A DNA stretch of 64,000 nucleotides from Candidatus Kaiserbacteria bacterium (GCA_016867375.1 VGJQ01000002.1:368-64367), one strand, 5' to 3'. Positions 2,677 through 58,984 are shown, numbered from the stretch's first letter. Notes: generated by a model from the letters alone, not told the origin. Translations and numbers: made by a program.

Positions 2677-3759
2677 CTATTTGTGTGCCGAGAGTACCTT
2701 GTGTATGCGCACTGAGAATTGGGTGCCTTTGCCTTCTTCGGATTTGACCATCACCTCGGCGCCGTGTTCGTTGAAGATATTTTTGGCGACGTAGAGTCCG
2801 AGACCCGAGCCATCGGGACGCATCTTCATCGCGACTTTGCCGCGGTGCATCTTGCCAAAGAGATTGGCCAGGTCTTCTTGTGACATGCCGATGCCCGTAT
2901 CCTTGATGGTGATATCGACAAACTCATCGACTTGTGTGATTGAGATAGATACCGTGCCGCCCGAGGGTGTGTATTCGATCGCGTTGGAGAGTACGTTGGA
3001 AAGTGCGATCGAGATGCGATCGGCGTCTGCAAGTACCGGCGGGATATCTGGCGCACTTTCGAATACCAATTTGACTCCGCGGCTGTCAGCGTGGCTTCGC
3101 GTTGATTCGACGAGCTTTTCTACGATGGGCTTCAGATCGGCTTCTGCAAATACGTATCCGAAACGGCCCTCACCGATGCGTGCGGCATTAATGATATCTT
3201 GGACGGTCCCCGATATGCGCGCAACAGCACCAGTCACCTCGGTGGGGACCTGTACAGTCTCAAGCGACCATTTGAGCTGGGTGAGCGCGGTGCGCAGCTG
3301 GTGTTCGATGAGTGTGATGGTGTCGCTTTTGTGTTGGAGTAGCTCGCGTTCGTGTTCGCCTGCTTGCCAGATGGCTGAGATAGCTGCGCTCATTGATTGC
3401 GCCATGTTGCCTATTTCATCGGATGATTGTACCGGCGGGGGAGACACACGTTCGTAATTTACATCACGCGACTGTTTGAACCATGTAAGGAGTGTATGCA
3501 CGGGATGTATAAACAAAAAATGTGTGACTGCGAGGAGATATAAAGACCAGATGGTCAGGAGAATGAGTGCTCGGGAGAGATCTGCGTGCGTCTGAAAGAA
3601 TGGTACAAAAAACAGCAGTGTGCTGAGAATTCCGATGCCAAGGAGCATAAAAAGGAGAAGCTTGACGGAGAGGGGGAAGAGTCTGCGGGGACGCGTCACG
3701 GTTTGCGATGTGGATGGGGGAGTCGAGATACGGACGCCCTGCTCAATCTGGTCTGCCAT
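2677..3759 (-). CDS. Sensor histidine kinase (two N-terminal TM helices, HisKA + HATPase_c); no response regulator adjacent
   Basis: H-box region and C-terminal ATPase motifs (GGTVSISITQVDEFVDITIKDTGIGM, GSGLGLYVAK). Hydrophobic N-terminus. Confidence 0.8.
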   Translation of the reverse strand: MADQIEQGVRISTPPSTSQTVTRPRRLFPLSVKLLLFMLLGIGILSTLLFFVPFFQTHADLSRALILLTIWSLYLLAVTHFLFIHPVHTLLTWFKQSRDVNYERVSPPPVQSSDEIGNMAQSMSAAISAIWQAGEHERELLQHKSDTITLIEHQLRTALTQLKWSLETVQVPTEVTGAVARISGTVQDIINAARIGEGRFGYVFAEADLKPIVEKLVESTRSHADSRGVKLVFESAPDIPPVLADADRISIALSNVLSNAIEYTPSGGTVSISITQVDEFVDITIKDTGIGMSQEDLANLFGKMHRGKVAMKMRPDGSGLGLYVAKNIFNEHGAEVMVKSEEGKGTQFSVRIHKVLSAHK

Positions 3760-3824
3760 ATATTGTCAATTCTACCATTCTCCGCGTACTATCCGTGGGT
3801 ATAAGGACGGGGTATATTGTGCAT

Positions 3825-5168
3825 ATGGAAGGTTATCGAAGCTTTTTTGAGGGCAAGAAAGTCACCGTCATGGGGCTCGGTCTCTTGGGTCGTGCGGCGG
3901 GCGATGCGGCATTCATCGCGAGCTGTGGTGCGCAAGTCCTCGTCACTGATATGAAGACGCGCGAAGCGCTCGCTGCATCGGTGGTGCGGCTTGAGCAGTA
4001 TCCGAATATTTCTTTCCGCCTCGGCGAGCATAGGGAGGAGGATTTCACTTCATGCGACATGGTGATCAAGGCTGCCGGTGTGCGGCTTGATTCGCCCTAC
4101 ATCGCGGCGGCGCGCGCGGCTGGGGTACCGGTGTACATGTCGACGGCGCTTTTTGCGAAATGCGCCTCTGATGTCGGAGCGCAGATCGTCGGTATCACCG
4201 GCACGCGCGGCAAATCGACCGTGACAAATATGATATATCATGTCCTAACTCACACGAAGCTGCTTCGTGTATTTTTGGGTGGCAACGTGCGCGGGGTCTC
4301 GACGCTCGCGATGCTGCCGGAGGTGAAAGCGGGCGACGTCGCAGTGCTTGAGCTCGACTCGTGGCAGCTGCAGGGATTTGGTGATTTGCAGATCAGTCCG
4401 CATGTCGCAGTATTTACGAATCTTCTGCCCGATCATCAAAATTACTATAAGGACATGGATGAGTATTTTGCCGACAAGGCGAATATTTTTCGGAATCAGA
4501 AGGTGGGAGATACGTTGGTAGTAGGCGAGCAGGTCGCGGGGCGCGTGCGGGCGGCACAACCGCCTTTAGAGGCGGTTGTGCCGCCCGCACTCCCGGATGA
4601 CTGGCACCTGTGCATGCCAGGCATGCACAACCGCGAAAATGCCGCGCTTGCTAAAGCAGCGCTTGAAGCGCTCGGTATTCCCGAGACGACTATCCAAGAA
4701 AGCCTTGAATCATTTACCGGAGTCGAAGGCCGCCTCCAATTCGTCCGCGAGATCAGGGGTGTCAAAATCTACAACGACAACAATGCCACGACGCCCGATG
4801 CGACGATTGCCGCACTGCGCGCGCTGACAGCCCCTCGACTAAGCTCGGGACATAATCAAGATAAAAATATTATTTTGATTATGGGTGGGGCTGACAAAGG
4901 GCTTGATATGAACAATCTGCTCTATGAAATCGCGGGGAGCTGCAAGCGTGTAATCCTGCTCGCAGGTACCGGCAGCAGTCGCATCGCACCTCTGATGCAA
5001 GATGTGTCTGTCTATGATGATTTTGAGCAGGCAGTCCACGAGGCGGTGGGTAGTGCACAGGGAGGCGACACCATCCTATTTAGCCCGGCCTTTGCCTCAT
5101 TTGGTATGTTCAAAAACGAATACGATCGCAATGATCGGTTTTTGTCCCTCGTGGAACATATAGTATGA
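3825..5168 (+). CDS. murD: UDP-N-acetylmuramoylalanine--D-glutamate ligase MurD
   Basis: KVTVMGLGLLGRA N-terminal Rossmann segment, P-loop GITGTRGKST, Mur ligase middle and C domains. ATG at 3825 is the first in-frame start after the upstream stop; the track ORF begins at 3708. Confidence 0.85.
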   Translation: MEGYRSFFEGKKVTVMGLGLLGRAAGDAAFIASCGAQVLVTDMKTREALAASVVRLEQYPNISFRLGEHREEDFTSCDMVIKAAGVRLDSPYIAAARAAGVPVYMSTALFAKCASDVGAQIVGITGTRGKSTVTNMIYHVLTHTKLLRVFLGGNVRGVSTLAMLPEVKAGDVAVLELDSWQLQGFGDLQISPHVAVFTNLLPDHQNYYKDMDEYFADKANIFRNQKVGDTLVVGEQVAGRVRAAQPPLEAVVPPALPDDWHLCMPGMHNRENAALAKAALEALGIPETTIQESLESFTGVEGRLQFVREIRGVKIYNDNNATTPDATIAALRALTAPRLSSGHNQDKNIILIMGGADKGLDMNNLLYEIAGSCKRVILLAGTGSSRIAPLMQDVSVYDDFEQAVHEAVGSAQGGDTILFSPAFASFGMFKNEYDRNDRFLSLVEHIV

Positions 5169-5672: not shown

Positions 5673-5742
5673 AAAGAAATGTTAGCGCCCCTATCAATTT
5701 TTGTCAAGGTTTATTAAAATGTGGATAATCCGCTGCGGGTTG

Positions 5743-5810
5743 TGGAGGTGACGGGATTCGAACCCGCGAGAATTGGGATGGCAATTCCATTCCCGGACCA
5801 ACCCACCCCC
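5743..5810 (-). ncRNA. tRNA-like element (degenerate tRNA or pseudo-tRNA): 7-bp acceptor stem GGGGGTG/CACCTCC, canonical T-arm GCGGG-TTCGAAT-CCCGT, discriminator A, but no foldable D-arm and an 8-nt anticodon-like loop
   Basis: Plus strand reads TGGAGGTGACGGGATTCGAACCCGC, the reverse complement of a tRNA 3' end. The 68-nt unit does not fit a canonical cloverleaf. Confidence 0.3.
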
Positions 5811-5852
5811 ACAACGGCGAGAGTATATCGTGAAGAACTTATAAGACAGACC

Positions 5853-7211
5853 ATGGATTACAAAAAAGTATATTTTATAGGTATCGGTGGGATCGGCATG
5901 TCTGGACTCGCGCAACTTCTGGTGCAGCAGGGCAAACAGGTGAGCGGCTCCGATAGGGAAGAATCGCCGACGACGGAGATGCTCGCGCGCAAAGGTATCA
6001 GTGTGACGATCGGGCAAACTGCGGACAATGTCGCACTGGATACAGACCTCGTGATCTACAGCGATGCGGTGTATGCCGACAATCCAGAGCGCATGCGCGC
6101 GGCGGACATGGGCATACCGCAATATTCATATTTCGAGGCACTCGGTGAAGTGTCGCGTAGTATGCGCACGATCGCCGTGGCGGGCACGCACGGCAAGACG
6201 ACCACCACTGGCATGCTCGCCAAGATGTTGTCGGATGCGGCGGTCGAGCCGACCGCAATCATCGGATCGATCGTACGCGATTTCGAATCCAACTACCTGC
6301 CCGGCAGACCCGATCTCTTTGTGGTAGAAGCATGCGAGTATAGGGATCACATCCTCAAACTCTCGCCCGAAATACTCGTCATCACCAATGTCGAGCTCGA
6401 TCACACCGACTATTTTCCCGACCTCGCCGCGCTCCAAGAGACGTTTCGCATTGCGGCAGAAAAAGTCCCCTCCTTCGCTCAAGCTTCGGAGGGCGGGCCT
6501 GCACAGGGCGGTGTCATTGTGACGAACCCAAGTGATCCCAATATCGCCCCCATTCTTCAAAATGTTACGGCAAAGGTGATCGATTACACTCAGGTACACA
6601 CACCGACGCTGCAGCTCATCGGCGAGTTTAATCGCGAGAATGCACAGGCGGCCAAGGCTGCGGCCTTGGCCGCATTTCCCGACCTCGACGAGCGCACGAT
6701 CGACGAATCACTCTCGTCATATCGAGGCGCATGGCGCCGATTTGAATACCGCGGCAAGACGCCGTCAGGTGCACTCGTCTACGACGACTACGCACATCAT
6801 CCGACCGCGATCATGAAGACGATCGAAGCAGCGCGCGCACGTTTTCCCGGCAAAAAGATAGTGGTCGCATTTCACCCTCACCTCTACAGCCGCACGAAGT
6901 CACTCATACATGAGTTTGCGGCAGCGCTTGCGACAGCCGATTTCGCTATCGTCGCACCCATCTACGCCGCGCGTGAAGCACTTGATCCGACTGTATCCAA
7001 CCATATTCTCGCAAAGCTCATCAATAGTACGATGCGGCAGGGGTACAAGTCAGACTTGTGCCTTGGCACAAGTCTGACTTGTGCCCCTGCAATCGCGATC
7101 GACTCATTCGACGAGATCCGCGATCGACTCCTGCAGGAAGGCGAAGACGCACTCATTATCACTATGGGCGCAGGGGATATTTATAAAGTAGCGCAGCAAA
7201 TCGCTGATTAG
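5853..7211 (+). CDS. murC: UDP-N-acetylmuramate--L-alanine ligase MurC
   Basis: N-terminus MDYKKVYFIGIGGIGMSGLAQLL and P-loop GTHGKTTTTGM. Carries an in-frame palindromic insert at 7046-7083. The track ORF starts at 5721 and runs through the tRNA-like element; ATG 5853 is preferred. Confidence 0.85.
   Translation: MDYKKVYFIGIGGIGMSGLAQLLVQQGKQVSGSDREESPTTEMLARKGISVTIGQTADNVALDTDLVIYSDAVYADNPERMRAADMGIPQYSYFEALGEVSRSMRTIAVAGTHGKTTTTGMLAKMLSDAAVEPTAIIGSIVRDFESNYLPGRPDLFVVEACEYRDHILKLSPEILVITNVELDHTDYFPDLAALQETFRIAAEKVPSFAQASEGGPAQGGVIVTNPSDPNIAPILQNVTAKVIDYTQVHTPTLQLIGEFNRENAQAAKAAALAAFPDLDERTIDESLSSYRGAWRRFEYRGKTPSGALVYDDYAHHPTAIMKTIEAARARFPGKKIVVAFHPHLYSRTKSLIHEFAAALATADFAIVAPIYAAREALDPTVSNHILAKLINSTMRQGYKSDLCLGTSLTCAPAIAIDSFDEIRDRLLQEGEDALIITMGAGDIYKVAQQIAD
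7046..7083. repeat. Nested perfect palindrome ACAAGTCAGACTTGTGCC-TT-GGCACAAGTCTGACTTGT (18-bp arms) embedded in frame in murC
   Basis: Read directly; same GTCAGAC hairpin family as the RAYT flanks. Encodes KSDLCLGTSLTC near the MurC C-terminus. Confidence 0.8.
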
Positions 7212-7822: not shown

Positions 7823-8572
7823 ATGTCAAGCGGAATATTGAGCATCGTCGCGACCCCCATAGGCAATCTCGAAGACATCACGCTTCGGGCACTGCGCACG
7901 CTACGCGAGGCCGATGTTGTCTTTGCCGAGGATACGCGGGTGGCTGCTAAGCTCTTGGCCCACCACGAGATCAAGGTACCGGTCCATCGGTGTGATGCAG
8001 AGGTGGAGGCCAAGGTCGCCACAGAGGTGGGCCTCCGGCTCGAGCGTGGCGAGCGTGTCGTATACATCTCCGATGCGGGGACGCCAGGGCTTTCGGACCC
8101 GGGCTCGCGGCTCGTGGCGCACGTGCGTAGTGCAATGGGCACCATTGCACCAACAGGCGGAAGCGCAAAAAGTGTTTCCTCTGCGCCGCCCCCATTTACA
8201 ATCGAAGCCATCCCGGGCCCCTCGGCACTGACCGCACTCATTTCAATCGCCGGTATCAATGAACCATCGTTCACCTTTCTCGGATTCTTGCCACATAAGA
8301 AAGGTCGTCAGACCGCACTCAAAAAGATCGCCGCATTGGTTCGATCAGACTCACCACAGGCAGGACATCCGGTCGTGCTCTATGAATCGCCGCATCGCAT
8401 CATCAAGCTCCTCAAAGAGCTATCACAATTCACGCCGGACAAGCACGTCGTCATCGGTCGCGAGCTGACGAAAATGCACGAGGAAGTCATATCCGGCACC
8501 CCAGCGGAAGCGATCTATTCGCTCGAGTCTCGCAATGCCGTACGCGGTGAATTCGTCGTCATCGTGTTCTAA
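7823..8572 (+). CDS. rsmI: 16S rRNA (cytidine1402-2'-O)-methyltransferase RsmI
   Basis: N-terminus LSIVATPIGNLEDITLRALRTL and a tetrapyrrole-methylase fold motif (PGPSA). The stop codon lies inside a palindrome. Confidence 0.8.
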   Translation: MSSGILSIVATPIGNLEDITLRALRTLREADVVFAEDTRVAAKLLAHHEIKVPVHRCDAEVEAKVATEVGLRLERGERVVYISDAGTPGLSDPGSRLVAHVRSAMGTIAPTGGSAKSVSSAPPPFTIEAIPGPSALTALISIAGINEPSFTFLGFLPHKKGRQTALKKIAALVRSDSPQAGHPVVLYESPHRIIKLLKELSQFTPDKHVVIGRELTKMHEEVISGTPAEAIYSLESRNAVRGEFVVIVF

Positions 8573-8593: not shown

Positions 8594-8866
8594 TTGCATT
8601 TCTTCTCTATTGGCTATACCCTAATCACTATCCATATGACTCTTGATGCAGTAATAATGCTCGTCGGCGCCATCGTCGCTATCCTGCCTTTCCTAGGTTT
8701 CCCGAGTAGCTGGGATTCCGTCTTGTACTTTATCCTCGGCGTGATCGTCATCGCGCTTGGGATCGTCGTCCGTCGCCGCAGCGCACATACGACGTCCGAT
8801 GCCAAACGTGTGTCTGCCAAAGACACCTACGTCGAGGCTGTCCCGTCCTCACGCGATATCACATAA
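8594..8866 (+). CDS. Hypothetical small membrane protein (90 aa)
   Basis: Two hydrophobic helices then a charged tail; upstream of the TraD-like gene. Confidence 0.45.
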   Translation: MHFFSIGYTLITIHMTLDAVIMLVGAIVAILPFLGFPSSWDSVLYFILGVIVIALGIVVRRRSAHTTSDAKRVSAKDTYVEAVPSSRDIT

Positions 8867-8976
8867 GGGTTCACCCACACACAACGCACCCGCTGTGCGT
8901 GGCGGCCACCTATAGGCTCGTTCATTTTGTGTTGTGTTGGTGGAAAAAATCTCGCTTTGCGGGGTATACTAGTAGT

Positions 8977-11166
8977 ATGTCGTCCGACCAGAAAAACGAC
9001 GATCGCCGGATCACCTATTTCGCCGCCACGCACACGCGCGGCAAGCGAGAGATGTTTGGTATCCGTGCGATTGATCGCGGCAAGCACATGTACGTGATCG
9101 GCAAGACGGGTATGGGCAAATCGACCATGCTCGAAAACATGGCGATCCAAGACATCCAAAATGGCGAAGGGATTGCCTATATCGACCCACATGGTTCGAC
9201 GGCCGACAAGCTTCTCGATTTCGTCCCATACGATCGCATCAAAGATGTCGTCTACTTCGCGCCGTTTGACGTCGATCATCCGCTCGGATTCAACGTGATG
9301 GAAGACGTCGGCTACGACAAGCGGCATCTCGTGGTTTCCGGCCTCATGGGGGCACTCAAGCGCATCTGGGTCGATGCGTGGAGTGCGCGCATGGAATACA
9401 TCCTGCAGAATACGCTCCTGGCGCTTCTCGAATACCCCGGCTCCAATCTTCTCGACGTCAATCGCATGCTTACCAACAAAACGTTCCGTACCGTAGTGGT
9501 CGAGAAGATCACCGACCCGATCGTGCGTGCATTTTGGACGGAAGAGTTTGCCAACTTCACCGACACCTATACGCGCGAGGCGACGCCAGCTATTCAAAAC
9601 AAAATCGGCCAGTTCACCGCTAATCCGCTCATACGCAACATCGTCGGCCAGTCGCACTCATCGTTTGATCTGCGCAAGATCATGGATGAGAAAAAGATAT
9701 TCATCGTAAATCTCTCAAAAGGCCGCATGGGCGAATCCAATGCATCGCTCTTGGGCTCGATGCTCACAGTCAAGATCTATCTCGCGGCGATGAGCCGCGC
9801 CGACGAGCCGCCCGCGCGCATGGCGCGGCTGCCGCGCTGTTATTTCTACGTGGACGAATTCCAGTCGATGATGAACGAAGCCTTCGCCGACATCCTCTCC
9901 GAATCGCGCAAATACAAGCTCGCGCTCACGCTCGCCAATCAGTACATCGAACAGATGGAAGAAAATGTCCGCGACGCCGTCTTCGGCAACGTCGGCACCT
10001 TGATCACATTTCGCGTGGGGCCGTTTGACGCCGAGACCCTAAAGACGGTATTTGAGCCGACCTTTACCGCCGAAGATTTGGTGGGCCTCGGTATCGGCGA
10101 AATATACCTCACACTCATGATCGACGGTGTGGGATCGGCGCCGTTTTCTGCGCAGACGATCCCGCCGATCGAAGCGCCCAACATCTCGTACCGCGAAGAT
10201 GTGATCACCCATTCACGCGAACACTACGGACGTCCGCGGCCCGAAGTCGAAAAAGCGATCACTGAGCGCCAGCGCGAGTTCATCCCGCCGCCACCCGAGC
10301 CCAAGAAAAAGCGCGAGTACGGCCGGCCAGGCGGTGGAAGCGGCATGATGGGCGGTGGCGGTGGCGGCGGAGGAGGCCCGTTTGGGCAGCCGCGCTCCAA
10401 CAATTTCAACAATACGCATACGCAGCAACAGGGCGGCCATGGTGCACCAGTGCGCGATGGCGGAGGATTTGCACCGCGTCCATCGATTCTCCCGCCACAT
10501 GTCGCGGCACAGGTACAGACACAGACACAGACACAGACGCAAGCCGAACCTTCTGCGCGAGAGAGTGTACAACAAACATCGTCCCCGTCTCCTGCGCGAG
10601 AGCATGTGCCACCGCTGGTACACGCGCGTACGTCGTCGCCTGTCGCTCCTGTGCGCCCGTACGCCGAGCAGTCGCGCGGACACTTCGTCCCTGCTGCGCG
10701 CAAAGACCCGAGCGATCCGCGCGATGCGCTTCGTGCTGCAATCAGTACCGCACGGAAAGCCGAAGAAGAGCATAACCGCCCAAAACCTGCCGAACGTTCT
10801 CCTCTCGACATCTTGCATGAGCGGAAGAAGACGCATGACACTCCCTCAAAGCATGAGGTTCCCCCAAAGCCTGAACGCGACGAGCGCCGATTTTCCCATG
10901 ATGTACGCGATAATCGCCCGTATCAGCATACGAATGATCAGCCGCCACGCGCGCATTATGCGAATGTACCGAAACCTTCGTATGGAGAGAGGGCCGACAG
11001 TGCTGGCATGGCGACGCCTACACACTCACAGGGATCATCTCCCGGCCCACGTCCGCAAGCGCGCCAAGAGACACCTCAAAAAGACTATAGTGATGGCACG
11101 GGTGAGATATCTCATGAGGTGCTCAGGAGTGTACTACGGCAGGATGATCGTGAGGGAGGGATGTGA
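8977..11166 (+). CDS. TraD/TrwB/VirD4-family P-loop ATPase (type IV coupling-protein-like, TrwB_AAD_bind-type) with a ~300-aa low-complexity Gly/Gln/Pro-rich C-terminal tail
   Basis: HMYVIGKTGMGKST Walker A, IAYIDPHGS, FYVDEFQSM Walker-B-like. Paralogous to 50440-53205. Start could be 8899. Confidence 0.75.
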   Translation: MSSDQKNDDRRITYFAATHTRGKREMFGIRAIDRGKHMYVIGKTGMGKSTMLENMAIQDIQNGEGIAYIDPHGSTADKLLDFVPYDRIKDVVYFAPFDVDHPLGFNVMEDVGYDKRHLVVSGLMGALKRIWVDAWSARMEYILQNTLLALLEYPGSNLLDVNRMLTNKTFRTVVVEKITDPIVRAFWTEEFANFTDTYTREATPAIQNKIGQFTANPLIRNIVGQSHSSFDLRKIMDEKKIFIVNLSKGRMGESNASLLGSMLTVKIYLAAMSRADEPPARMARLPRCYFYVDEFQSMMNEAFADILSESRKYKLALTLANQYIEQMEENVRDAVFGNVGTLITFRVGPFDAETLKTVFEPTFTAEDLVGLGIGEIYLTLMIDGVGSAPFSAQTIPPIEAPNISYREDVITHSREHYGRPRPEVEKAITERQREFIPPPPEPKKKREYGRPGGGSGMMGGGGGGGGGPFGQPRSNNFNNTHTQQQGGHGAPVRDGGGFAPRPSILPPHVAAQVQTQTQTQTQAEPSARESVQQTSSPSPAREHVPPLVHARTSSPVAPVRPYAEQSRGHFVPAARKDPSDPRDALRAAISTARKAEEEHNRPKPAERSPLDILHERKKTHDTPSKHEVPPKPERDERRFSHDVRDNRPYQHTNDQPPRAHYANVPKPSYGERADSAGMATPTHSQGSSPGPRPQARQETPQKDYSDGTGEISHEVLRSVLRQDDREGGM
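10516..10539. repeat. (CAGACA)4 hexanucleotide microsatellite inside the TraD-like tail (encodes QTQTQTQT)
   Basis: Read directly; in-frame unit of two codons. Confidence 0.8.
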
Positions 11167-11222
11167 GAGGGTGCGGCGCGGGCGCATTGATGCGCCCGCG
11201 CCGCATATGCTATGGTAGCCTC

Positions 11223-11924
11223 ATGACACGGGGTCTCATACTCACCATACTGGGGTGTTTCTTGCCGCTTATGGTATCGGCGCAGATCACCATCACCGAT
11301 ATCGTCTATGATCCGCCGGGTGCTGATACGGGGCGCGAATGGGTCGGTATCACCAATACGGGTACCTCGTCGGTACGCGTGTCCGATTTCAAAGTGCGTA
11401 CTCGCAGCGGTGTCAATCACAAGATCACGCCTTTGTCGGGAGTCGACACGATCGCTCCCGGCGAGCGTGCGGCGATCGTCCAGGATGCGACGCTTTTTTC
11501 CGCAGACAACGCCTCTTTCTCGGGGACACTCTTTCGTGCGTCGTTTACGCTCACCAACAAAGGCGGCACAGTCGAGATCGCAGACAAGACAGGCGCTATC
11601 GTCGCGACCAAATCATATCAGGTGCCGCCTCCTGCGCCGCGCCCGACAGCGCAAAAATCTGCGCGGCCGAAAGCGGCTGCGCAGACGATAGAAGAGATAT
11701 CGACCGCTCTTCCAGCAGACGAAAATGAGGAGACGCGAGAAAGAAAGCTACACGAAAAACCTCAATCTGCGGCGTTTACGGCGAGTGCGGTTTCCGCATC
11801 ATCGACCGTGCTATGGCTTGCCGCTGTCGTGGCGATCGCAGGATTCGCATTTCTCGCCGTGTTTGCCGCGCGCCGCGTGGCAAAAGGGGAGTGGGAGATC
11901 GTAGAAGAAAAAGAAGGGGATTGA
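11223..11924 (+). CDS. Lamin-tail-domain (LTD) surface protein with signal peptide, Pro-rich linker and C-terminal TM anchor
   Basis: ITDIVYDPPGADTGREWVGITNTGTSSVRVSDF..GGTVEI matches the LTD beta-sandwich signature. N-terminal signal and C-terminal hydrophobic helix. Confidence 0.65.
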   Translation: MTRGLILTILGCFLPLMVSAQITITDIVYDPPGADTGREWVGITNTGTSSVRVSDFKVRTRSGVNHKITPLSGVDTIAPGERAAIVQDATLFSADNASFSGTLFRASFTLTNKGGTVEIADKTGAIVATKSYQVPPPAPRPTAQKSARPKAAAQTIEEISTALPADENEETRERKLHEKPQSAAFTASAVSASSTVLWLAAVVAIAGFAFLAVFAARRVAKGEWEIVEEKEGD

Positions 11925-11978
11925 TGTATGTAAGAGCTGTGCACACCACGGGGTCTTTGCGGCATATATAATGTACCT

Positions 11979-13532
11979 ATGCACTCAGGAGAAGACTCGC
12001 GGCCAATTGTCGAGCAGCTGCGCGCAGAGGGGATGGACGATACGGTCATTCGGGCGCGTATGGAGCTTGAAGGATGGGATGAAGCAGATATCAAAGCTGC
12101 CTTTCAAGCGCTGCCCACGCCAGATCATCACGCGGCAAAGACATCGACACATCACCATCGGCGGACCAGGCGTCGCCGACACACTGTGACAGCTGCCATC
12201 GCCGCGATCGCGTTTTTCGGCGTCGGCATGTTTGGCGGTTTTACCTTCCATACGCCGCCGGTCTACTCGATATCCCTTCCACCGCTTTCAGGAGCGACGT
12301 CCACGGTACCCGAGCTTACCTATGGCGCTTTACCTGCGCTCGTCGATCCTGAATACTATGCAGACGTGAAAAATGCGCTCATCGTCGGACGCGCCGATTT
12401 CATCACTGCCGATCTGACCCACATGCAGCTGGATGTCTACCAGGCGGGGCTGGTCGCGCATACGGCGCCGATCATCGCCAAAGGCAAAGTCGGTTCGTGG
12501 TGGGAGACGCCGGTCGGGATTTACAAGATCGAGACGAAAGAAAAAGATCACTACTCGACCTTTAGTAAAGTGCATATGCCATGGAGCATGCAATTCCAAG
12601 GCAATTTCTTCATCCATGGCTTGCCTTATTACAGCGATGGGACGCCAGTCTCATCATCGTACTCGGGAGGCTGTATCCGTCTTTCGACTGAAGACACCGA
12701 AGAGGTCTTTCATCTCGCGTATGTCGGGATGCCGGTCATCGTCTACAAAGAATCCGATGAAGTGTCTACCTTCTCGTATCGATTCAGGACGCCACGCGTG
12801 GCTGCGACCGAATACCTCGTCGCCGATGTCAACAATGGCTCAGTGCTTGCGAGCAAAAATGCGAGCTCACTGGTGCCGATCGCTTCGATCACGAAGCTTG
12901 TCACCGCACTTACGGCGACCGAATACATAAACCTCGATCGTGATGTCATGGTGCAGTCGAACGCGCTCGTGTACACGGCGAATCCACGATTGCGCCCCGG
13001 GGACCATAAGCGCGCATACGATCTGCTCTATTTGTTGCTGCAAGAATCATCCAACGAAGCCGCTGAAGTGATCGCTTCGGTGATGGGGCGCGATGAGTTT
13101 GTCGCTTTCATGAACGCAAAAGCGCGTGCGATCGGGCTCACACGCACGACATTCGCCGATCCTTCCGGTGCCAAGAGCGACATGTCGACTCCGGAAGACC
13201 TCTTTACGCTCCTGCGCTACGTTCATGCCAATCGGCGCTTCGTCTTTGGCATTACCGCAGGGACGCTCAAAGATAGCGCATACGGGAATCATTCGTTTGC
13301 AAACATTTCCAACTACAACATCATCAAGAGTCTCCCCGCGTCATACACCTTTGTCGGCGGGAAGGTCGGCCAGACCAATGAGGCGGGAGAGACGTACGCA
13401 GGCGTCTTCTCGGTGCCTATCGGAGGTGTGAGACGCGACATTGCGGTGGTCGTGCTCGGCTCGACCGACGCTTCCAGCGATGTCGTGTCGCTTCTGAAAT
13501 TTGTCTCCTCATCATACGCAGCGGATCAGTAG
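11979..13532 (+). CDS. Bifunctional peptidoglycan enzyme: L,D-transpeptidase (YkuD) domain fused to a serine D-Ala-D-Ala carboxypeptidase (peptidase S11/PBP5-like) domain, with an N-terminal TM anchor
   Basis: YkuD motif HGLPYYSDG..SGGCIRL. S11 motifs SITKL (SxxK), SSNEAAE (SxN) and KVGQT (KTG). Confidence 0.7.
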   Translation: MHSGEDSRPIVEQLRAEGMDDTVIRARMELEGWDEADIKAAFQALPTPDHHAAKTSTHHHRRTRRRRHTVTAAIAAIAFFGVGMFGGFTFHTPPVYSISLPPLSGATSTVPELTYGALPALVDPEYYADVKNALIVGRADFITADLTHMQLDVYQAGLVAHTAPIIAKGKVGSWWETPVGIYKIETKEKDHYSTFSKVHMPWSMQFQGNFFIHGLPYYSDGTPVSSSYSGGCIRLSTEDTEEVFHLAYVGMPVIVYKESDEVSTFSYRFRTPRVAATEYLVADVNNGSVLASKNASSLVPIASITKLVTALTATEYINLDRDVMVQSNALVYTANPRLRPGDHKRAYDLLYLLLQESSNEAAEVIASVMGRDEFVAFMNAKARAIGLTRTTFADPSGAKSDMSTPEDLFTLLRYVHANRRFVFGITAGTLKDSAYGNHSFANISNYNIIKSLPASYTFVGGKVGQTNEAGETYAGVFSVPIGGVRRDIAVVVLGSTDASSDVVSLLKFVSSSYAADQ

Positions 13533-13613: not shown

Positions 13614-13796
13614 AAGGGCTCGTCCACAAATAACGTACCCATTATTTGTGGACTACACTTATGGGCCCGTTCATTTGGTGTTGAACTTATAAGTGCACAC
13701 TTGCATACATGACCAAAAGTCATGTATGCAGAAGTGAGCCTTATGAACGGGACCTAATATGCTATCTCTACGCTATAGCGCAGAGATAGCATACGT
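13614..13796. repeat. Composite repeat: module A (13614-13688), module C inverted (13691-13744; palindrome TGCATACATGAC-CAAAAG-TCATGTATGCA), then module D palindrome ATGCTATCTCTACGC-TATA-GCGCAGAGATAGCAT (13760-13796)
   Basis: Near-identical modules recur elsewhere (19099, 26484, 27385, 32056, 50251, 58234, 58947). Confidence 0.8.
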
Positions 13797-13850: not shown

Positions 13851-14735
13851 ATGGCAGACAAAAAGACAGTCATTGTGACAGGTGGCGCAGGGCTCATCGG
13901 ACCCTATCTGATCGAGCTCTTGCTGCAGAAGGGGTACCGCGTCGTCTCACTCGACAATTACTTCATCGGTACTGAAGCCAACCATATCGAAGGTGCCGAA
14001 TACCACAAAGGCCACACCAAAGATATCGAAGCGATCCTTGGGCACGAGAATCCAGAGATTATCTTCCATCTTGCCGAGTATTCACGCATTAGGCAGAGCT
14101 TCGCTGAGCCCGCATTTGTCTGGGATCTCAATGTGGCAGGCACCTTTGCGGTGCTCGAATACTGGCGCAAGCGTAAGTGCCGCCTGCAATACGCTGCGTC
14201 GAGCACCAAATTCTCGATAGGTGATGTCGGTCGCGATGCCTCGCCCTATGCGTGGATGAAAGCGATCAATGCCGACCTCGTCACCAACTATGGCACATGG
14301 TACGACCTCCCGTATACGATCACCTACTTCTACAATAATTACGGCCGCCGCGAACTCTCGACGGGCGAGTATGCCTCCGTCATCGGCAATTTCAAAACAC
14401 ATTTTCTCAATGGCGAGCCGTTACCCGTGATCGCTCCCGGCACGCAGATGCGCAATTTCACCTTCGCCGGAGACACAGCGCGCGGACTCCTTGAGGCGGG
14501 TGAGCGAGGGCAGGGTGATGGGTATGGCTTTGCCAGCAAAGAATCATTCTCTATTCTTGAGCTCGCGAAGATGTTTGGCGACAATATCGAAATGCAGCCC
14601 GCAGTCCCCGGTGATCGCAAAGCGACGACCGTCGAGACCGAAAAGGCCGAAAAAGAATTCGGCTGGCATGCCGAACGCCACCTCAAAGACTATATAGAAG
14701 ACATCAAAGCCGGCCGCGATTTATCGCGGTGGTAA
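13851..14735 (+). CDS. NAD-dependent epimerase/dehydratase (extended SDR; UDP-sugar 4-epimerase / dTDP-glucose 4,6-dehydratase-like)
   Basis: TGGAGLIG Rossmann motif and catalytic Y..K region (YAWMK). Confidence 0.7.
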   Translation: MADKKTVIVTGGAGLIGPYLIELLLQKGYRVVSLDNYFIGTEANHIEGAEYHKGHTKDIEAILGHENPEIIFHLAEYSRIRQSFAEPAFVWDLNVAGTFAVLEYWRKRKCRLQYAASSTKFSIGDVGRDASPYAWMKAINADLVTNYGTWYDLPYTITYFYNNYGRRELSTGEYASVIGNFKTHFLNGEPLPVIAPGTQMRNFTFAGDTARGLLEAGERGQGDGYGFASKESFSILELAKMFGDNIEMQPAVPGDRKATTVETEKAEKEFGWHAERHLKDYIEDIKAGRDLSRW

Positions 14736-15839: not shown

Positions 15840-17063
15840 ATGAAACGCATTCTTATTTTTTCGCTCACGTATCATCCTTACATCGGCGGAGCGGAGGTGG
15901 CGATCAAGGAGATCACGGATCGGATCGATTCGTCCCGCTATCAGTTTGATATGATCACCTTGCGTTTCGACCGCAATCTGCCGGCGGTCGAGCGTGTGGG
16001 AAATGTTACCGTGCATCGCATCGGCTTCACTGCCGATGCACCCAAGATTTCCGACCGCCGCATGCCCCTGCAATGCAAGATCGCCAAGATTCTTTTCCCA
16101 TTCACGTCGTTTGTGAAAGCGGTATCGCTTCATCGGGAGCATGCATACGACATGATCTGGGCGATGATGGCCAATTATGCTGCGTTCGGCGCGCTCGCTT
16201 TCAAATACACACATCCACGCGTGCCGTATCTGCTTGAGCTGCAGGATGGCAATTCGCTCGCGCAGGTCAAAGAGCGTCAACCGGTCCTGCGCCTTCTGTG
16301 GCCGCTCTACCGTCGGCTCTACCTGAAGGCCGATGTGATCAAAGCGATCTCACGATTCATCGAGCGGCTCACGCGCGAGGTGGGCTACGCGGGCCCGGTC
16401 GTCGTCATCCCGAATGCGGTGGATACAACGAAGTTTTCCGCACCCGTCCCGCAGGAAAAGCTCGACGAACTGAAAAATCGTTTCGATAAAAAGAAAGGCG
16501 ACACCTTTCTTTTTACTGCATCGCGCCTCGTGCTCTCGCGCGGTGTCGAGGATGTGATACGCGCCTTGCCGCATCTGCCCGTGTATGTGAAGTTTCTCAT
16601 TGCCGGTGATGGACAAGATCGGGAGAAGCTCGAGTCGATCGCGCGCGAGGCGGGCGTGTACGACCGTGTGATATTTGCCGGACATGTCGGACACGACGAG
16701 CTGCCCGCGTATTTCAAAGTGTCGGATATCTTTGTACGTCCGTCGATCATCGAAGGATTTGGCAATGCGTTCGTCGAGGCGTTTGCCGCCGGCATCCCCG
16801 TGGTGGCGACAGAGGTGGGCGGTATCCCGGATTTCCTTTTCGATCCGATCGAAAATCCTGATCACGCGCCGACGGGGATTTTTTGCAAAGTGCGCGATCC
16901 CGAATCGGTCGCGAGTGCGGTACGCCGGTATCTCGATGATCCGGCTCTTGCGCAGCAGATGGTCACAAACGCGCGCGCGCTTGCGATCGAGAAATACGAC
17001 TGGCATACGATTGCAGCGGATATGGAACGGGAGGTATTTGGACCGTTTGGGTCCCGTTCATAA
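15840..17063 (+). CDS. Glycosyltransferase family 4 (GT-B, Glycos_transf_1)
   Basis: C-terminal EGFGNAFVEAFAAGIPVVATEVGGIPD motif typical of GT4 enzymes. Confidence 0.8.
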   Translation: MKRILIFSLTYHPYIGGAEVAIKEITDRIDSSRYQFDMITLRFDRNLPAVERVGNVTVHRIGFTADAPKISDRRMPLQCKIAKILFPFTSFVKAVSLHREHAYDMIWAMMANYAAFGALAFKYTHPRVPYLLELQDGNSLAQVKERQPVLRLLWPLYRRLYLKADVIKAISRFIERLTREVGYAGPVVVIPNAVDTTKFSAPVPQEKLDELKNRFDKKKGDTFLFTASRLVLSRGVEDVIRALPHLPVYVKFLIAGDGQDREKLESIAREAGVYDRVIFAGHVGHDELPAYFKVSDIFVRPSIIEGFGNAFVEAFAAGIPVVATEVGGIPDFLFDPIENPDHAPTGIFCKVRDPESVASAVRRYLDDPALAQQMVTNARALAIEKYDWHTIAADMEREVFGPFGSRS

Positions 17064-32055: not shown

Positions 32056-32336
32056 AGGTCCCGTTCATAAGGCTCACTTCTGCATACATGACTTTTGGTC
32101 ATGTATGCAAGTGTGCACTTATAATTTCAACACAAAATGAACGGGCCCATAAGTGTAGTCCACAAATAACGAGTACGTTAATTTGTGGACGAGTCCTTAA
32201 AGTACTTGTTTATGATTCGCGGCCGCGAATCATAAACAAGTACTTTTATCCGGACAATATATTTTGGGATGTTCTAAGGCTTAACCTTAGAACAGATATG
32301 CTATCTTTGCGCTATAGCGTGGAGATAGCATACAGA
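32056..32336. repeat. Composite repeat: module C + module B (32056-32200), 46-bp perfect palindrome AAGTACTTGTTTATGATTCGCGG|CCGCGAATCATAAACAAGTACTT (32199-32246), palindrome GTTCTAAGG-CTTAA-CCTTAGAAC (32270-32292), module D (32297-32336)
   Basis: Read directly; right boundary of the two-gene island. Confidence 0.8.
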
Positions 32337-33794: not shown

Positions 33795-36700
33795 ATGCGA
33801 AACATAATACGTTTCTTTGGCGCGTTGGGTATTTTATCAGTGTTTCTTTTTACGGGGCTCCACATCGCCTCCGCCGCGATCACGTCGAATACGGCCGCTG
33901 ATCTCACCATCACGGGGCAGACGATCAAAGCCTCGTCGACGCCGCTTGCGGTCATCGGGTTGAACGTCGCTGTAAATGCGGGTGAAAAACTCGCCTCGAC
34001 CTCGATCATGATCGCCGGCTCGAACGGCTTCGCGGTCGCGACCGACCTCGCCCCCCTCGGCACGGCGACATCGTCGGGTATCGCGCTCTACCGCGACACC
34101 AACGGCAACGGCCGCTTCGATGCGGCGGCGGATACCGTCGTCCCGCTTGCAAGCGCACCTGTCTTCACAGGCGCCACGACCACACTTTCGCTCACCGGGG
34201 CGGGCGAAACGCCCATCTCGAACGCGGGCGGCAACAACTACTTCCTCGTCGTGCAAACCGCTGGCGCAGCGGTGAATGGGCACGCGTTCACCGTGAGCAT
34301 CTATCCTGGCAACATTCAGTACAGCTCGGCCACTCCCGCTGGCTCGCCGACGGCCCTCACCACGAATACCATTACCGTCGACACGACGGCGCCCGCGCTC
34401 AATGCGGGCATGACGGGCCCCATGAACGGCTCGACCGGTGTACCCATCTCGACCTTTATCCACATGGGCTTCAATGAAAACCTCGACCAGACGACCCTTA
34501 ATTCATCCAACATCACTCTCACCGCGGGCGGCTCGCCCGTGGGCATCGCGGTACGACCCTTCCCCGACGGCTTCGATGTGGTCGTCTCCAACCCGCCCTC
34601 CTATGCGGCAAGTTCGCGCTTCGCCAAAGCCTCGACCGTCTCCACGGGCTTCTTCGGCGTCAACGGCACCAACACCATCTTCCCGCAGGGCACTTATACC
34701 GCGCCTGTGGTGGGCGATATCGTCTTCACCCAGTTCGACACCTTCGCGCCCGATATCGGCATCGTGACCAACAACACGCTTACCTCGGGCACCTTCGGCG
34801 TGAACGGTTTTGCGCTCTTCCGCCCTGCACAGATCACCAAATTCGCCGTGCCGAATTCGATCGGCGCTGTAACCGCGGCGACGGGTGTGGGCATAGGCGA
34901 TCTCATAGTCGTCAATACGAGCGCTAACCCGACCGACGTCAAGTACAACTGGCACGTCGTTACGACGGCGGACGCCGTCAATGGCGCGAGCTTGCGCCTC
35001 GACGGTTCGGGCGCCGCGCCCACGTACCAGAGCGGCTCATCGTTTAGCCGCCTTTTGCCCGCCGCGACTTCGACAGTCAATGGCTCGGGCGTCTTGAATG
35101 CCTCGACGACGTTTGCCGTGGGTGATCTTGTCTTCGCCCATCTTTCTGCAGGCGGGGATAATCTCAACCGGTACGCGTGGCATCTCGTGACCGCCGTTAC
35201 GGGCGCGGGCATTCTCGGCCCGCAGGGCGGTGGCGGCACCATTTCGCTCGACGGCGGTACGCCCACCTTTGCCAATAACTCGGTCGTCGCCAAGTTGACG
35301 ACCGCGGGCAACGGCGCCGTCGATACAGGCACTCCAGACGCTACAAGCTTCTCCTTCGGCGACATCATGTTCTCCAAAGTGACGGCAAACGCGGGCAACA
35401 CCGGTTCGTACGCCTTCCACATGATCTCAAACGGCGCCACCGGCGCGACCTCGACCGCGTTGCGCCTCGACAACAGCGCGTCCAATCTCCTACCCTCGAC
35501 CGCGTACGTCGCGACCGCAAGCACGGGAGTCAAGGATGCGGCGGGCAACGCTCTTGCATCACCCGTCACGCTCTCCTTCACCACCGGCTCGACCGGCGGC
35601 ACCAACACGACGCCCCCCGCAGTCATGAACACCCAGCCGCAGCAGGGCAACCAGCAATTCGCCCCCAATGGCAAAATTGCGTTGACCTTCAGCGTGACGA
35701 TGCTCGCCGACGGCGGCGCCAATGCCGTCAATAACGCGGCGGTCGTCGTGCTCTCGACGTCGGTCAATGGCGCACCGGGTTCCGCGGTGACGGCTACGCG
35801 CAGCTATGACGCGACAACCAACACGCTCACCGTCACGCCGAGCGCCAATCTTGCCACGAATACCGAGTATGTCGTTCAGGTGACGACCGCCGCGCGCACG
35901 ACGACCGGCGTTTCGATGCCCGGCGAGTATCGCCTGTACTTCCGCACGGCTTCGGCGGTCGACAACACGGCCCCGACCGTCCCCGGCGTCAACCCCGCCG
36001 CAGGTTCGACCGGCATTTCGCTCTCGCAAGTCTTTACCGCCGGATTCTCCAAAGACATGGATCCGGCGACCGTCTCGACGAGCACCGTCAAGCTCCTTAC
36101 GCAAGTCGGCGGTACGGCCGTCGCAGGCAACGTCTCGTACAACCCCATGAGCCGCTCGGCCAATTTCGTGCCGTCGGTCGTGCTCAACACCTCGACCGGG
36201 TACCGCTTCCAGATCGGCGCGGGCCTCACCGGGCCGGCGGATCTTGCCGGCAATCGTCTCGCCGCGACGTCAACTTCGTTTGCGACGACGACGGCATCGG
36301 CCGATGCGGTATCACCGATCGTCTCCTTCGCGAGCGCCGACAACTTCGGCATCGCCGTCACTTTCTCCGAGACGATGAAAACCGGCAGCGGCCCCAATGC
36401 GGCCGACAACATTGCCAACTACACGCTCGAAAGTCCGACGGGCACTTCGATCTCGCTCGGCGGAAAGACGGTCGTCTATGACGCCGGCACCAGGACGGCG
36501 CGTATCTCGGGCCTTTCGCTCCAAAACGGCAACACCTTCAAGGTGACGATCGCCACGCCCGTGCAAGATCTTGCGGGCAACGGCATCTCGACCGCCGGAA
36601 CACCCGCAGGCAATCTCTCTTTCGGCACCGTACAAAGCTCCTCAATGACGGGCGGCCAGCTTGGCCCCGGCACCGGCACGATGGATCAATCGCAGCAGGG

Positions 36701-39700
36701 TATGAATCCGATTCGCGTGAGTCCGATGAGCCGTAGCGCGGGGGTTATATCGCAGTACAACGTAACGTTTCCCGCCGCGACCTCGATTCCGCTTGGCGGT
36801 CAGATTGTGCTCACCTTCCCCTCCGGTTTCGACGTGACAAATGCCGCGATGGTCGCCACCTCCTCGAACGCCTCATTCTGCAACACCGACGTCAACGGCC
36901 CCATGAGCGGTTCGCCGTACATCTTGAGCGTGTCGAACGACGCCAATGCCGGCACCATCACGCTCAATACCGCCGGCGCCGCATCCGGCGCAAACGCGTT
37001 CGTTTGCCTCGACATCGCGGGCATCGTGAATTCGACCGTGCCGTCCACTGCCGGGTACGTCGTTGACCTCAAAACGCGCGACACCGCCGGCAATAACCGC
37101 GCGATTCTCGAAACAAAGAGCGCGGCGCCGTTCTTCCTCGGCGTTGCGGGCACACGCACGCTCACCGTCAATGTCTTCAACGACGGCAACGCAAACAGCA
37201 CGATCAACGCCAATGAAGGCATCGGTAACGTAAAGGTATTTCTGTTCTCGCCAGCGTCCGGAGGACAAATGGCGACGACATCCGCATCGGGTGTTGCGAC
37301 GTTTACCTCGCTCGCCGACGGCGATTACATGCTCGGCCTCGATCCAGGCTCACTCGCGACTGCCTCCTCGACCGTCACCTACAATTCCGCGCCTCAAAAC
37401 TTCACCGTCTCGGCCACCACGCTTGTCAAAAACATCATCGTCTCGGGCGCGGGCAGCACCGTAACGATCTCCGGCACGATCACCGGCCCGTCGGGCACGT
37501 CGATCGACATCTTCGCTTCAAGCCCCAACGGTTTCTCCAAGAAAACGATGACTCTGACCGCCGGCCCCGATGCGTACTCGATCCCCGTTCAGACCAACAG
37601 CACGTACAACATCGGCGTCGGTCCGGCAATGCCCGACACCGCCTTCATCCCGGGCGCTCCGCCACCGCCACCGCCGACGTTCACCTTCATGCCGCCGCCG
37701 TCCTTGATGGTCACGGTCGCTACCACCTCGGTTTCGGGCAAGAACTTCACCCTCTCGAGCGCCTCGAAGACGATCACCGGATCGGTCTTGGATTCCGCGG
37801 GCAACGCCGTATCGAACGCCGGCGTCTTCGCGCGCCCCGTCTCCAATTCGACCGGCGCGGGCGGCGCATCGGGATCGGATCTCGGCTTCGGCACCGGCGG
37901 CATGACCAACACCTCGGGCGCGTTCACGCTCAATGTGGTGCCGGGCACGTACCTCGTCGGCGTGTTCAAGCCGGGTATGCCCAACGTGCCGGATCAGCAA
38001 ATCACCGTGCCGTCGAGCGGCGCCAACACGCCTTCCTCGCTTACCTTCAAGCTCGGCGTCGGCTCGTCGCTCACCATATCGGGTACCGTCAAGGATGACA
38101 GCGGCAATGCGGTACCATATTCCGGCGTTTCCGGCCGCAAAATCACCTCGACATCCGATACGACGCCGATCGGCGGCGGGCAGGGCAACTTCGTCGGCGG
38201 GCCGGCCGACGCCAACGGCGCTTACACGCTCTACGTCACCAACGGTGTCTGGCAAATCGAGGCCTATGCACCGGGCTTCGGGAAGCTCGGCTCCAAGACC
38301 ATTACCGTAGCAGGCTCCTCGCTCTCCGGCCAAGACTTCTCGGCCCAAACGCTTTCGATTGGCACGATTACCGGCTCGACGACCGTGGCATCGGCCGGCG
38401 TGCAGGGTGTGATCGTCCGCGCCGAGGGCGCCAACGGCGCCAACATGGCCGTCTCGGATGCGACCGGCTCGTATAGCCTCAAGGTCCCGGCCGGCACCTA
38501 CACGCTCACGTGCGTCTTCCCGGGACAGGGCGATTCGACCCCGACGACCGGTGTTGCCGTCACGGCCAACAACACTACGAGCGGCCAAGATTGTGCGCTT
38601 GCCGCGCCGATCACCGTCACCGTCAGGCTCACCGACGGCACCAATCCGATCACCAACGCCTTCGTCGACGCGCGCACCTCGACCGGCCGTGGCAATGGCA
38701 CCGGCGACAACGCCACGAGCAGTATCTACGGCGTCTACACGCTCACGCTCGCGCCGGGCACGTACACTATCCGCGCGGGCAGTCCCGCATTCGGCCCCAT
38801 CGGCTCGACCGCCGGGGTCTCCTCGACGCAAACCATCACCTACACAACGCCTAAACTCTACAGCGTAACGGGCACCGTCTCGGCCTCGGGTGTGGGTGCG
38901 ATTAACACATGGGTATCGCTCACGGGAACGCCCACAGGCCAGACCAACATCATTACGACCGGTTCGCAAACGGGCGCGGGCGGCGCCTTCGCGATCTCCG
39001 TGCCGGCGGGGAGTTACCAGATCCGCGCGGACAAACCGGGTTTCATCTCATCGACGCCTTCGACTGTCACCGTCACCGGCGATACCGCGGCGGGGACGCT
39101 CGCGCTCACGACCGCATCCCTCACGATCTCGGGCCAGGTCACGTTGTCGGGTAGCGGCGTCTCGGGCGCATTCGTCGACGCGACGAACGGCTCGGGTGGC
39201 TTTGCAGTAGCGCAAACTGACGCTTCCGGTAACTATTCGCTCGCCGTTTCTTCGGGTACATGGACGGTAACCGCGCGCTCGATAGGGTATTCAGGTGCGA
39301 CAACCGCCTCGGTGGTCGGCGGATCCGCCTCGGGGCAAAACATTGCGCTTTCGGCGATCAGCGGCTTCACGGTCAGGCCCGAGCGCCAGGAAAACGTCAC
39401 GCCGACCATGGGCGGCCTCCTCACTAATTCCGACATCGGCAACGCCTTCAAACTCAACATTCCGGCGAACGCCTTGGGCACCGGTTCAAACGCGGGTACG
39501 GTCAAGACGCAGAACAATACCGCGCTTCCCAATATCGTCAACGGCACCGTGCTCGCTAAAAGCGGCGTTTCGATCAGTGCGGTCGATGCGTCCGGCCAGC
39601 CGGTGAAAAACCTCAACGATAGCGTTACGATTACCGTACCTTACAACGAAAGCGATATTCCGAGCGGCCGATCAGAGAGTGATTTGCAACTCGGCGTGTG

Positions 39701-53349: not shown

Positions 53350-53670
53350 ATGTTGGCACTGTTTGGGCTTTTTATCATCGTCGGCGCACTCTTTGCTTAT
53401 ATCGCAGGGCGTACGCGCTGTCTGTCTCGCGGCCCGAGTATACTCTGCGAAGCTTTTGCATGGGTTGCGACAGGGACAGGGTCACTTGGCTATACATTAC
53501 GCTTCGGCGTTAAGAATGGGCCAATGCCTAACCCCGGCTCAACCGACTACTTTCTCCATACGGTCCATATAGGACTTATCATCTGGCTTACGATGATAGT
53601 CATTGGCGTAGTGGTCCTCATAAGCAAAGAATGTGGACGGAAGGGAAAGCCGCTTATGTTCAAGTTCTGA
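53350..53670 (+). CDS. Small integral membrane protein (106 aa, 3 TM helices)
   Basis: Strong SD (AAGGAG), own promoter, hydrophobic sequence. Confidence 0.6.
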   Translation: MLALFGLFIIVGALFAYIAGRTRCLSRGPSILCEAFAWVATGTGSLGYTLRFGVKNGPMPNPGSTDYFLHTVHIGLIIWLTMIVIGVVVLISKECGRKGKPLMFKF

Positions 53671-58233: not shown

Positions 58234-58270
58234 TATGCTATTGTGTTGCTATAGCGTAGTCATAGCATAT
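58234..58270. repeat. Module D palindrome variant ATATGCTATTGTGTTGC-TATAGC-GTAGTCATAGCATAT
   Basis: Paired with 58947-58984 around the PaaX-like gene. Confidence 0.7.
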
Positions 58271-58946: not shown

Positions 58947-58984
58947 ATATGCTATTGTTGCGCTATAGCATAGAGATAGCATAT
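58947..58984. repeat. Module D palindrome ATATGCTATTGTTGCGC-TATAGC-ATAGAGATAGCATAT
   Basis: Read directly. Confidence 0.7.

Follow-up and report, generated by a model that had tools for sequence, protein, structure and literature searches.

The coupling proteins (T4CPs) of type IV secretion systems (T4SSs), among them TrwB (R388), VirD4 and TraD, are by sequence the closest described relatives of a 729 amino acid ATPase, here called type A, which is encoded at nucleotides 8977-11166 of a 64-kb stretch of DNA from a Candidatus Kaiserbacteria bacterium (GCA_016867375.1 VGJQ01000002.1:368-64367). This stretch, hereafter the window, is an exact match to a Candidatus Kaiserbacteria (Patescibacteria) contig of 64,701 bp, and the ATPase is listed at NCBI as "hypothetical protein FJY93_00530". 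Unless noted otherwise, positions refer to the window; the genes of the ATPase neighbourhood, the features within them and the paralogue described below all lie on the + strand. Homologues of T4CPs have been surveyed in this group before. According to the counts of Quinonero-Coronel et al. 2025 (PMC12102498) on which we draw, 5713 VirD4-type homologues are present in 2918 of 3035 Patescibacteria genomes and VirB4 in 2417 of the 3035, with just 148 of the 5713 homologues located near virB4; the same source considers exaptation possible, since the homologue in Ca. S. epibionticum is non-essential. The type A gene belongs with these orphan T4CP homologues, chromosomal genes that match the T4CP profile, are present in about two copies per genome and almost never lie near virB4. 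Set beside the sections of PMC12102498 used here, what is new is the architecture without transmembrane (TM) helices, the division into types A and B, the strong conservation, and a neighbourhood comprising a 2-TM protein, a DUF4015 protein and a surface protein carrying a lamin-tail domain (LTD) or a helix-hairpin-helix (HhH) domain.

Two other described systems bear on this locus. A review describes TraJ of pIP501 as a T4CP that lacks TM helices and has the 2-TM protein TraI as its supposed anchor. In monoderm competence systems (ComEA/ComEC/ComFA), a membrane-anchored receptor for double-stranded DNA (dsDNA) stands beside a cytoplasmic translocase-superfamily ATPase, and ComEA and ComEC are generally encoded in genomes of the candidate phyla radiation (CPR). 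From the features set out below, we tentatively favor a reading in which the type A ATPase would drive, from the cytoplasm, a route of DNA handling at the envelope, with the LTD/HhH protein encoded downstream as its external receptor.

ORF calling recovered the open reading frames (ORFs) where the initial annotation had placed them, and its assignment of the ATPase to the TrwB type stands. Three Pfam matches lie over their cut-offs, namely TrwB_AAD_bind (E 7e-8; 32.2 bits against a cut-off of 20.5), T4SS-DNA_transf (1e-6) and TraG-D_C (3e-5). A single-sequence search of the PDB returned TrwB as the sole match (E 6e-4), and a search with the family profile returned TrwB (E 2e-7) plus DotL. The ATPase domain (aa 1-441; 8977-10299) is a RecA-like NBD (nucleotide-binding domain) with a helical insertion. 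Its Walker A (GKTGMGKS, 9100-9123), Walker B (YVDEFQ, 9847-9864), RK (SESRKYK, 9898-9918) and Q (LANQ, 9931-9945) motifs all align to TrwB, as does IDPHG to the DPxG motif of that protein; the catalytic core is intact. An AlphaFold (AF2) model of residues 1-458 (pLDDT 94.8) has a RecA-like core into which helices are inserted at about residues 113-237, and thus predicts the all-alpha domain within the NBD that T4CPs require. Foldseek placed TrwB first (E 8e-13; TM-score 0.56-0.65 over 410-440 aligned columns), followed by HerA, Cagbeta, DotL, DndH-C and VirB4. The ATPase is therefore a member of the VirB4/VirD4/HerA branch which is T4CP-like by sequence and not separable from VirB4 or DptH by fold. 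Unlike VirB4 it has no N-terminal VirB4 domain and no CagE/TrbE Pfam match, there are no Dnd or Dpt genes as would accompany DptH/DndH, and sequence profiles favor the TrwB-type families.

The resemblance to TrwB, VirD4 and TraD thus extends to an NBD with Walker A and B motifs, a helical insertion and a C-terminal extension; identity to these coupling proteins is 14-16%. Unlike them, the window ATPase has no N-terminal TM helices, as had been annotated initially: the best 19-residue Kyte-Doolittle score is 1.47, below the threshold of 1.6 over 19 residues used for TM helices. Since the homologues begin at the same residue, the N-terminus is not truncated. A disordered C-terminal tail of about 290 residues (aa ~441-729; 10300-11166), variable in length and sequence, had also been predicted and is present; its description as Gly/Gln/Pro-rich does not hold, the composition being P/G/R/S/A/Q-rich with a net charge of +7. 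It is thus basic and Pro/Gly-rich, not acidic. Among some 70 tails the sequences are unalignable, yet two short motifs are kept, one with the consensus RSPADILRER (RSPLDILHERKK in the window, 10795-10830) and one with the consensus GEVSxExLxxVL (GEISHEVLRSVL, 11101-11136) about 10 residues before the C-terminus. The latter is still present at 46% domain identity, in loci L082 and L084.

Homologues of the ATPase number more than 8000; the best 120 belong to Kaiserbacteria, Paceibacterota and Minisyncoccia and share 82-100% identity with it in the ATPase domain. At 50% identity clustering and E < 1e-30, the family comprises 5565 clusters and has two architectures: type A, in which the ATPase domain is followed by a variable tail, and type B, in which it is preceded by an N-terminal domain of 350-450 residues. 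Across 80 genome loci the median identity to the ATPase domain of the window is 84%, against 62% for MurC, 61% for MurD, 57% for RsmI, 62% for the GT4 glycosyltransferase, 54% for the epimerase and 32% for the LTD protein at the same loci. Conservation of the ATPase domain far exceeds that of the adjacent housekeeping proteins, and the domain is under very strong purifying selection.

The gene following the ATPase, which had been annotated as an LTD protein, does encode an LTD (Pfam, E 2e-11). Its start is probably the ATG at 11223, which opens a signal peptide (MTRGLILTILGCFLPLMVSAQ, 11223-11285), and not the GTG at 11163. The resulting type-I surface protein of 233 amino acids (11223-11924) consists, in order, of the signal peptide, the LTD, a Pro/Ala/Glu linker, a C-terminal TM helix (11808-11870) and a cytoplasmic tail (RRVAKGEWEIVEE, 11871-11909). 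Compared with its relatives this copy is shortened, full-length orthologues having the order signal peptide, LTD, PKD, LTD, linker, TM helix and short cytoplasmic tail. Identity is just ~32% in the ectodomain, and the tail motif K.EWDI[VI]EE, which occurs once in the window, is well conserved. A search of the PDB with the LTD protein gave no match.

In L086 the orthologue has its N-terminal LTD exchanged for a ComEA-type HHH_3 domain (E 3e-19) and retains the rest of the protein. The same exchange is found in six Kaiserbacteria-type loci (L017, L027, L036, L056, L067 and L069) and in two metagenome loci (L107 and L127) with an unchanged body of PKD, LTD, TM helix and tail, so that at least nine loci have an HhH variant of the downstream protein. 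HHH_3 is a dsDNA-binding module, as established for ComEA. Because orthologues in the same position exchange the LTD for HHH_3, the LTD end is probably DNA-binding as well, and the association of LTD with DNA that the initial annotation had drawn gains support from the swap. These variants support a role for the protein as a surface DNA receptor, in which binding of DNA by the LTD itself is inferred from the domain exchange. In having a membrane-anchored receptor, with HHH_3 in orthologues, beside a cytoplasmic ATPase of the translocase superfamily, the locus resembles the monoderm competence apparatus. It differs in that the ATPase, unlike ComFA, is not a DEAD-box helicase, and in that the receptor family, unlike ComEA, is anchored C-terminally and contains PKD and LTD domains; the window copy has the LTD and not HhH.

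Upstream of the ATPase lies a small ORF, 8594-8866, which encodes a conserved 2-TM hairpin protein and has its true start at the ATG at 8636. The 76 amino acid product (8636-8866), here called tm90, has two hydrophobic helices, a core of the form MTLDALIML.GAFVA.LPFLGFPNSWD.VL.F..GVF.I.LGIVVRRR, and a variable hydrophilic tail, and it is also encoded at the distant loci L082, L084, L087 and L088. Like TraJ and TraI of pIP501, the locus pairs a soluble coupling-type ATPase with a separate small 2-TM protein, both being of the monoderm FATA type, and by analogy we infer that tm90 is a candidate membrane tether of the ATPase. Unlike the genes considered here, traJ and traI are plasmid genes, part of a tra operon that also encodes a relaxase and VirB4; the window locus has no tra context, its 2-TM gene is in relatives often parted from the ATPase gene by DUF4015, and the likeness is one of architecture. 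The gene for the DUF4015 glycosidase-like protein has been lost from the locus in the window and its closest relatives, and no copy was found elsewhere in the 64 kb. Just 5' of the ATPase gene, a promoter-like pair (TGGAAA-18-TATACT, within 8941-8977) ends 6 nt before the ATG and would, if real, give a leaderless mRNA; promoter-like matches in the ATPase region are no more frequent than chance (3 seen, 4 expected).

About 90 related loci, with ATPase identities as low as 46%, keep the order murD-murC-rsmI-2-TM protein-(DUF4015)-ATPase-LTD/PKD protein-glycosyltransferases. In the window this order is represented by murD-like (3708-5168), murC-like (5721-7211) and rsmI-like methylase (7823-8572) genes, the genes already described, and, further downstream, an epimerase (13851-14735) and the GT4 glycosyltransferase (15840-17063). 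Among the first 89 loci, the segment rsmI-tm90-(DUF4015 or an unannotated protein of ~370 amino acids)-ATPase-LTD-family protein-epimerase/GT4 is nearly constant: tm90 precedes the ATPase in 61 of 69 loci, DUF4015 or the "c9" protein does so in 54 of 69, and an LTD-family protein is found 3' in 57 of 63. The order also holds in other Paceibacteria lineages, at 63-67% ATPase identity in L086 and L087 and at 46% in L082 and L084. In a metagenome sample of 52 type A loci, DUF4015 precedes the ATPase in at least 20 of 34; neighbor counts in this sample are lower bounds, as ORF calling and HMMs were crude. There are exceptions. L088 has neither DUF4015 nor the LTD protein, and in L085 the copy lies in a mobile or defence island, a 50%-identical type-A-like gene (L085, 6256-7578) amid resolvase, SIR2, integrase, RadC, ResIII helicase and N6/N4 methylase genes in a setting that resembles the MADS context. 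L084 has two extra type-A-like copies (L084, 275-3313) beside Bro-N, HTH and HicA genes.

Type A is thus a core, chromosomal and vertically inherited gene of Paceibacteria (Patescibacteria), where the paralogous type B ATPase is likewise core and vertically inherited. That the system is not conjugative, as initially suggested, agrees with its place in a vertically inherited chromosomal backbone of about 90 loci and with the lack of T4SS and relaxase genes in the window. No relaxase or mating-pair-formation genes accompany the ATPase in the 64-kb window or at the ~90 syntenic loci, a further difference from TrwB, VirD4 and TraD; no relaxase, VirB4, VirB6 or pilin family matched the window ORFs scanned, short ORFs having been scanned incompletely so that small pilins could escape. 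A conjugative or integrative island was considered and is ruled out by the conserved synteny, the unremarkable GC content of the locus, and the lack of an integrase or relaxase. Beyond the window the statement that no other T4SS genes are present fails. In genome table S1 of PMC12102498, from which the VirB4 status of relatives was taken, VirB4 is listed for five of the seven tabulated relatives with the locus (L016, L019, L036, L046 and L057) and as absent for two, L051 and L074, both of which are draft genomes.

In the favored reading, the 2-TM protein, and perhaps also the surface protein through its conserved cytoplasmic tail, would hold the ATPase to the cytoplasmic side of the membrane, where the ATPase would work as a hexameric ring motor; the LTD/HhH protein would capture extracellular dsDNA. 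Uptake, for transformation or nucleotide scavenging, would be the likeliest direction, because one variant of the receptor resembles ComEA and because CPR bacteria are auxotrophic for nucleotides, and no conjugative element would be served. The initial annotation had spoken of an uncharacterised envelope translocation module; handling of DNA at the envelope is the part we retain. The orphan T4CP homologues had already been reported in PMC12102498.

Several observations weigh against a receptor-motor pairing of this kind. The window protein has an LTD only and no HhH, and so is not itself a ComEA-type receptor. No LTD/HhH protein is present in L084 and L088, and the counts for this family 3' of the ATPase are only at least 14 of 36 in the metagenome loci. 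The adjacency itself may reflect a frozen gene order, since the whole neighborhood including murC and rsmI is syntenic. By fold the ATPase domain is as near to DptH and to the C-terminal domain of VirB4 as to TrwB. No DNA channel (ComEC or VirB6) is encoded in the locus. The T4CP homologue of Ca. S. epibionticum is, as already cited from PMC12102498, non-essential. ComEC-dependent transformation is likewise non-essential in that organism. We also considered that the disordered tail of the ATPase might touch the cytoplasmic tail of the LTD protein, an appealing idea given the conserved motif K.EWDI[VI]EE, but it is speculation only, as co-variation does not support it; in L082 this motif is lost and the ATPase motif stays.

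The strongest alternative is that the ATPase is the detached VirD4-equivalent of a chromosomal VirB4-type T4SS encoded elsewhere, typically near dnaA, to which it would be recruited by tm90 in the manner of TraI and TraJ. T4CPs head both the sequence and the Foldseek matches, the T4SS of Patescibacteria belongs to the monoderm FATA type and has no recognisable T4CP in its cluster, pIP501 provides the precedent of a TM-less T4CP with a 2-TM anchor, and VirB4 is listed for the five tabulated relatives named above. We nonetheless regard this explanation as doubtful, though a serious one. T4CP-like genes are found in more genomes than VirB4 in the counts cited at the outset (2918 against 2417 of 3035), the fraction near virB4 is small (148 of 5713), and L051 and L074 have the locus and are entered in the table as VirB4-negative, with the reservation that both are drafts. 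According to the same source, the T4SS of S. epibionticum is essential and the homologue is not. The curated NCBIfam TraD/VirD4 models all score well under their cut-offs on the ATPase (SXT_TraD 47.6 bits against 366, the CD1115 family 36.2 against 250, and TOL TraD 32.5 against 648). A median identity of 84% would, moreover, be unusual for coupling proteins as generally known.

A cytoplasmic housekeeping DNA motor of the FtsK or HerA kind, concerned with segregation, repair or a replication-linked task, would account for the very strong conservation and near-universal presence of the gene, for its place within the murD-murC-rsmI backbone and for its soluble architecture; the envelope neighbors would then be frozen synteny. 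That the ATPase might stand in for FtsK was also considered; FtsK itself is documented for TM7x only. The paralogue in the window, a type B ATPase of 921 amino acids (50440-53205), also fits such a role by its setting. It has an N-terminal domain of ~500 amino acids without TM helices and, after it, an ATPase domain that shares 42% identity with that of type A; its relatives have Pfam DUF8128 as the N-domain, and 17 metagenome loci encode DUF8128 and the ATPase as two separate genes. The window copy is placed after secY-adk-map, and relatives follow a sigma70_r4/HARE-HTH gene or lie in dprA-topA and secDF contexts, all of them housekeeping. A small 2-TM ORF of 106 amino acids (53350-53670, + strand), without a Pfam match, lies just 3' of it; type A, type B and FtsE are the only three Walker-A ORFs in the window. 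We consider such a motor unlikely. The type A ATPase has no FtsK_SpoIIIE Pfam match and no FtsK-type motor domain with a gamma or TM domain, DUF87 reaches 17.4 bits against a cut-off of 23.2, and neither NurA nor another nuclease partner was found in the locus. The steady presence of two neighbors, a 2-TM protein and a surface protein with DNA-binding variants, points instead to the membrane.

A bolder form of the envelope reading, in which type A is the DNA-import motor of Paceibacteria, a VirD4-class hexamer held to the membrane by the 2-TM protein, drawing in DNA caught by the LTD/HhH-PKD receptor and replacing ComFA in function, with type B as a specialised second motor, seems to us rather improbable; if true, it would explain DNA uptake by nucleotide-auxotrophic cells. 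A mobile-element or anti-phage component, e.g., a MADS mad8-like ATPase, is scarcely credible, for the matches to mad8 (PADLOC, E 4.5e-16) and phrog_5156 (function unknown, E 6e-60), the homologues among hypothetical proteins of Bacillus phages G, CP-51 and others, and the copies amid island genes in L085 and L084 are to be set against a window copy in chromosomal synteny over ~90 loci, of unremarkable GC content, with murC, rsmI, the LTD protein and a peptidoglycan enzyme as neighbors and no methylase, nuclease, integrase or mad genes alongside.

That peptidoglycan enzyme, encoded at 11979-13532, had been annotated as a membrane-anchored L,D-transpeptidase/D,D-carboxypeptidase fusion. The domains (YkuD, E 9e-16; Peptidase_S11, E 5e-24), the single N-terminal TM helix and the intact catalytic motifs FFIHG, SGGCIR, SITK, SSN and KVG bear this out. 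Such a fusion joins an enzyme making tetrapeptide stems to one using tetrapeptides for 3-3 cross-links. Its inclusion in a module with the ATPase and the LTD protein, initially proposed, has to be withdrawn: only 9 of the first 89 loci and 3 of the 52 metagenome loci (~10% of loci) have the fusion close to the ATPase. In all 12 genome loci placed by tblastn it lies 5' of the ATPase, and only in this window 3'. The family is broad, with 1207 matches in Paceibacteria, the best 120 of which all have both domains. Sparse co-location and the breadth of the family rule it out as a conserved member, and we judge it to be an ordinary peptidoglycan enzyme of Paceibacteria, present here by chance. The steadier partners of the ATPase are tm90 and the DUF4015 glycosidase-like protein.

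A perfect 16-bp GC hairpin without a U-run occupies 11172-11205 (+ strand; -42.1 kcal/mol, z -4.65), between the stop of the ATPase gene and the start of the LTD gene. A conserved terminator or attenuator is ruled out, as hairpins are present in 5 of 70 loci with unrelated sequences; the few strong ones at this gap in relatives (L045, L078, L020 and L068) have nothing in common by sequence. The hairpin is probably a local palindromic insertion outside the system. The window has an IS200-like Y1 transposase ORF (235-936), with a 25-bp perfect palindrome just 5' (163-214); the murC ORF contains in its 3' part (7037-7090) a related palindrome that has the core AAGTCAGACTT in common with it. In L053, L062 and L078 a member of this transposase family separates the ATPase and LTD genes, and in L011 one lies 3' of the ATPase.

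A different palindrome of ~36 bp, TATGCTATCTCTACGCTATAGCG..AGAGATAGCATA, occurs at five intergenic sites (13758-13793, 26485-26520, 32297-32332, 58234-58269 and 58948-58983), its half-sites giving 10 matches where 0.03 are expected. At 13758-13793, 32297-32332 and 58234-58269 it is positioned 58-83 nt 5' of start codons on the + strand. It is absent from all 170 of the 170 loci compared, and is a candidate genome-specific operator or promoter element. Elsewhere in the window, 33795-40751 encodes a surface protein of 2318 amino acids with Big_5, CarboxypepD_reg and PG_binding repeats; it lies in a 6-kb stretch with a GC content of 0.63-0.64, the remaining window having 0.50-0.55.

The Patescibacteria account for much of bacterial diversity, and as they do not synthesize nucleotides they are reliant on other cells for exchange. 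About two T4CP-like ATPases are encoded by almost every member of the group, and the role of these ATPases is, in the account of PMC12102498, an acknowledged question. Type A is among the most constrained proteins of its neighborhood, lacks an anchor of its own and is co-inherited with a 2-TM protein and an LTD/HhH surface protein. With the L,D-transpeptidase/D,D-carboxypeptidase fusion removed as a false lead, this offers a testable hypothesis of conjugation-independent DNA handling at the envelope of these bacteria, with named partners and short motifs.

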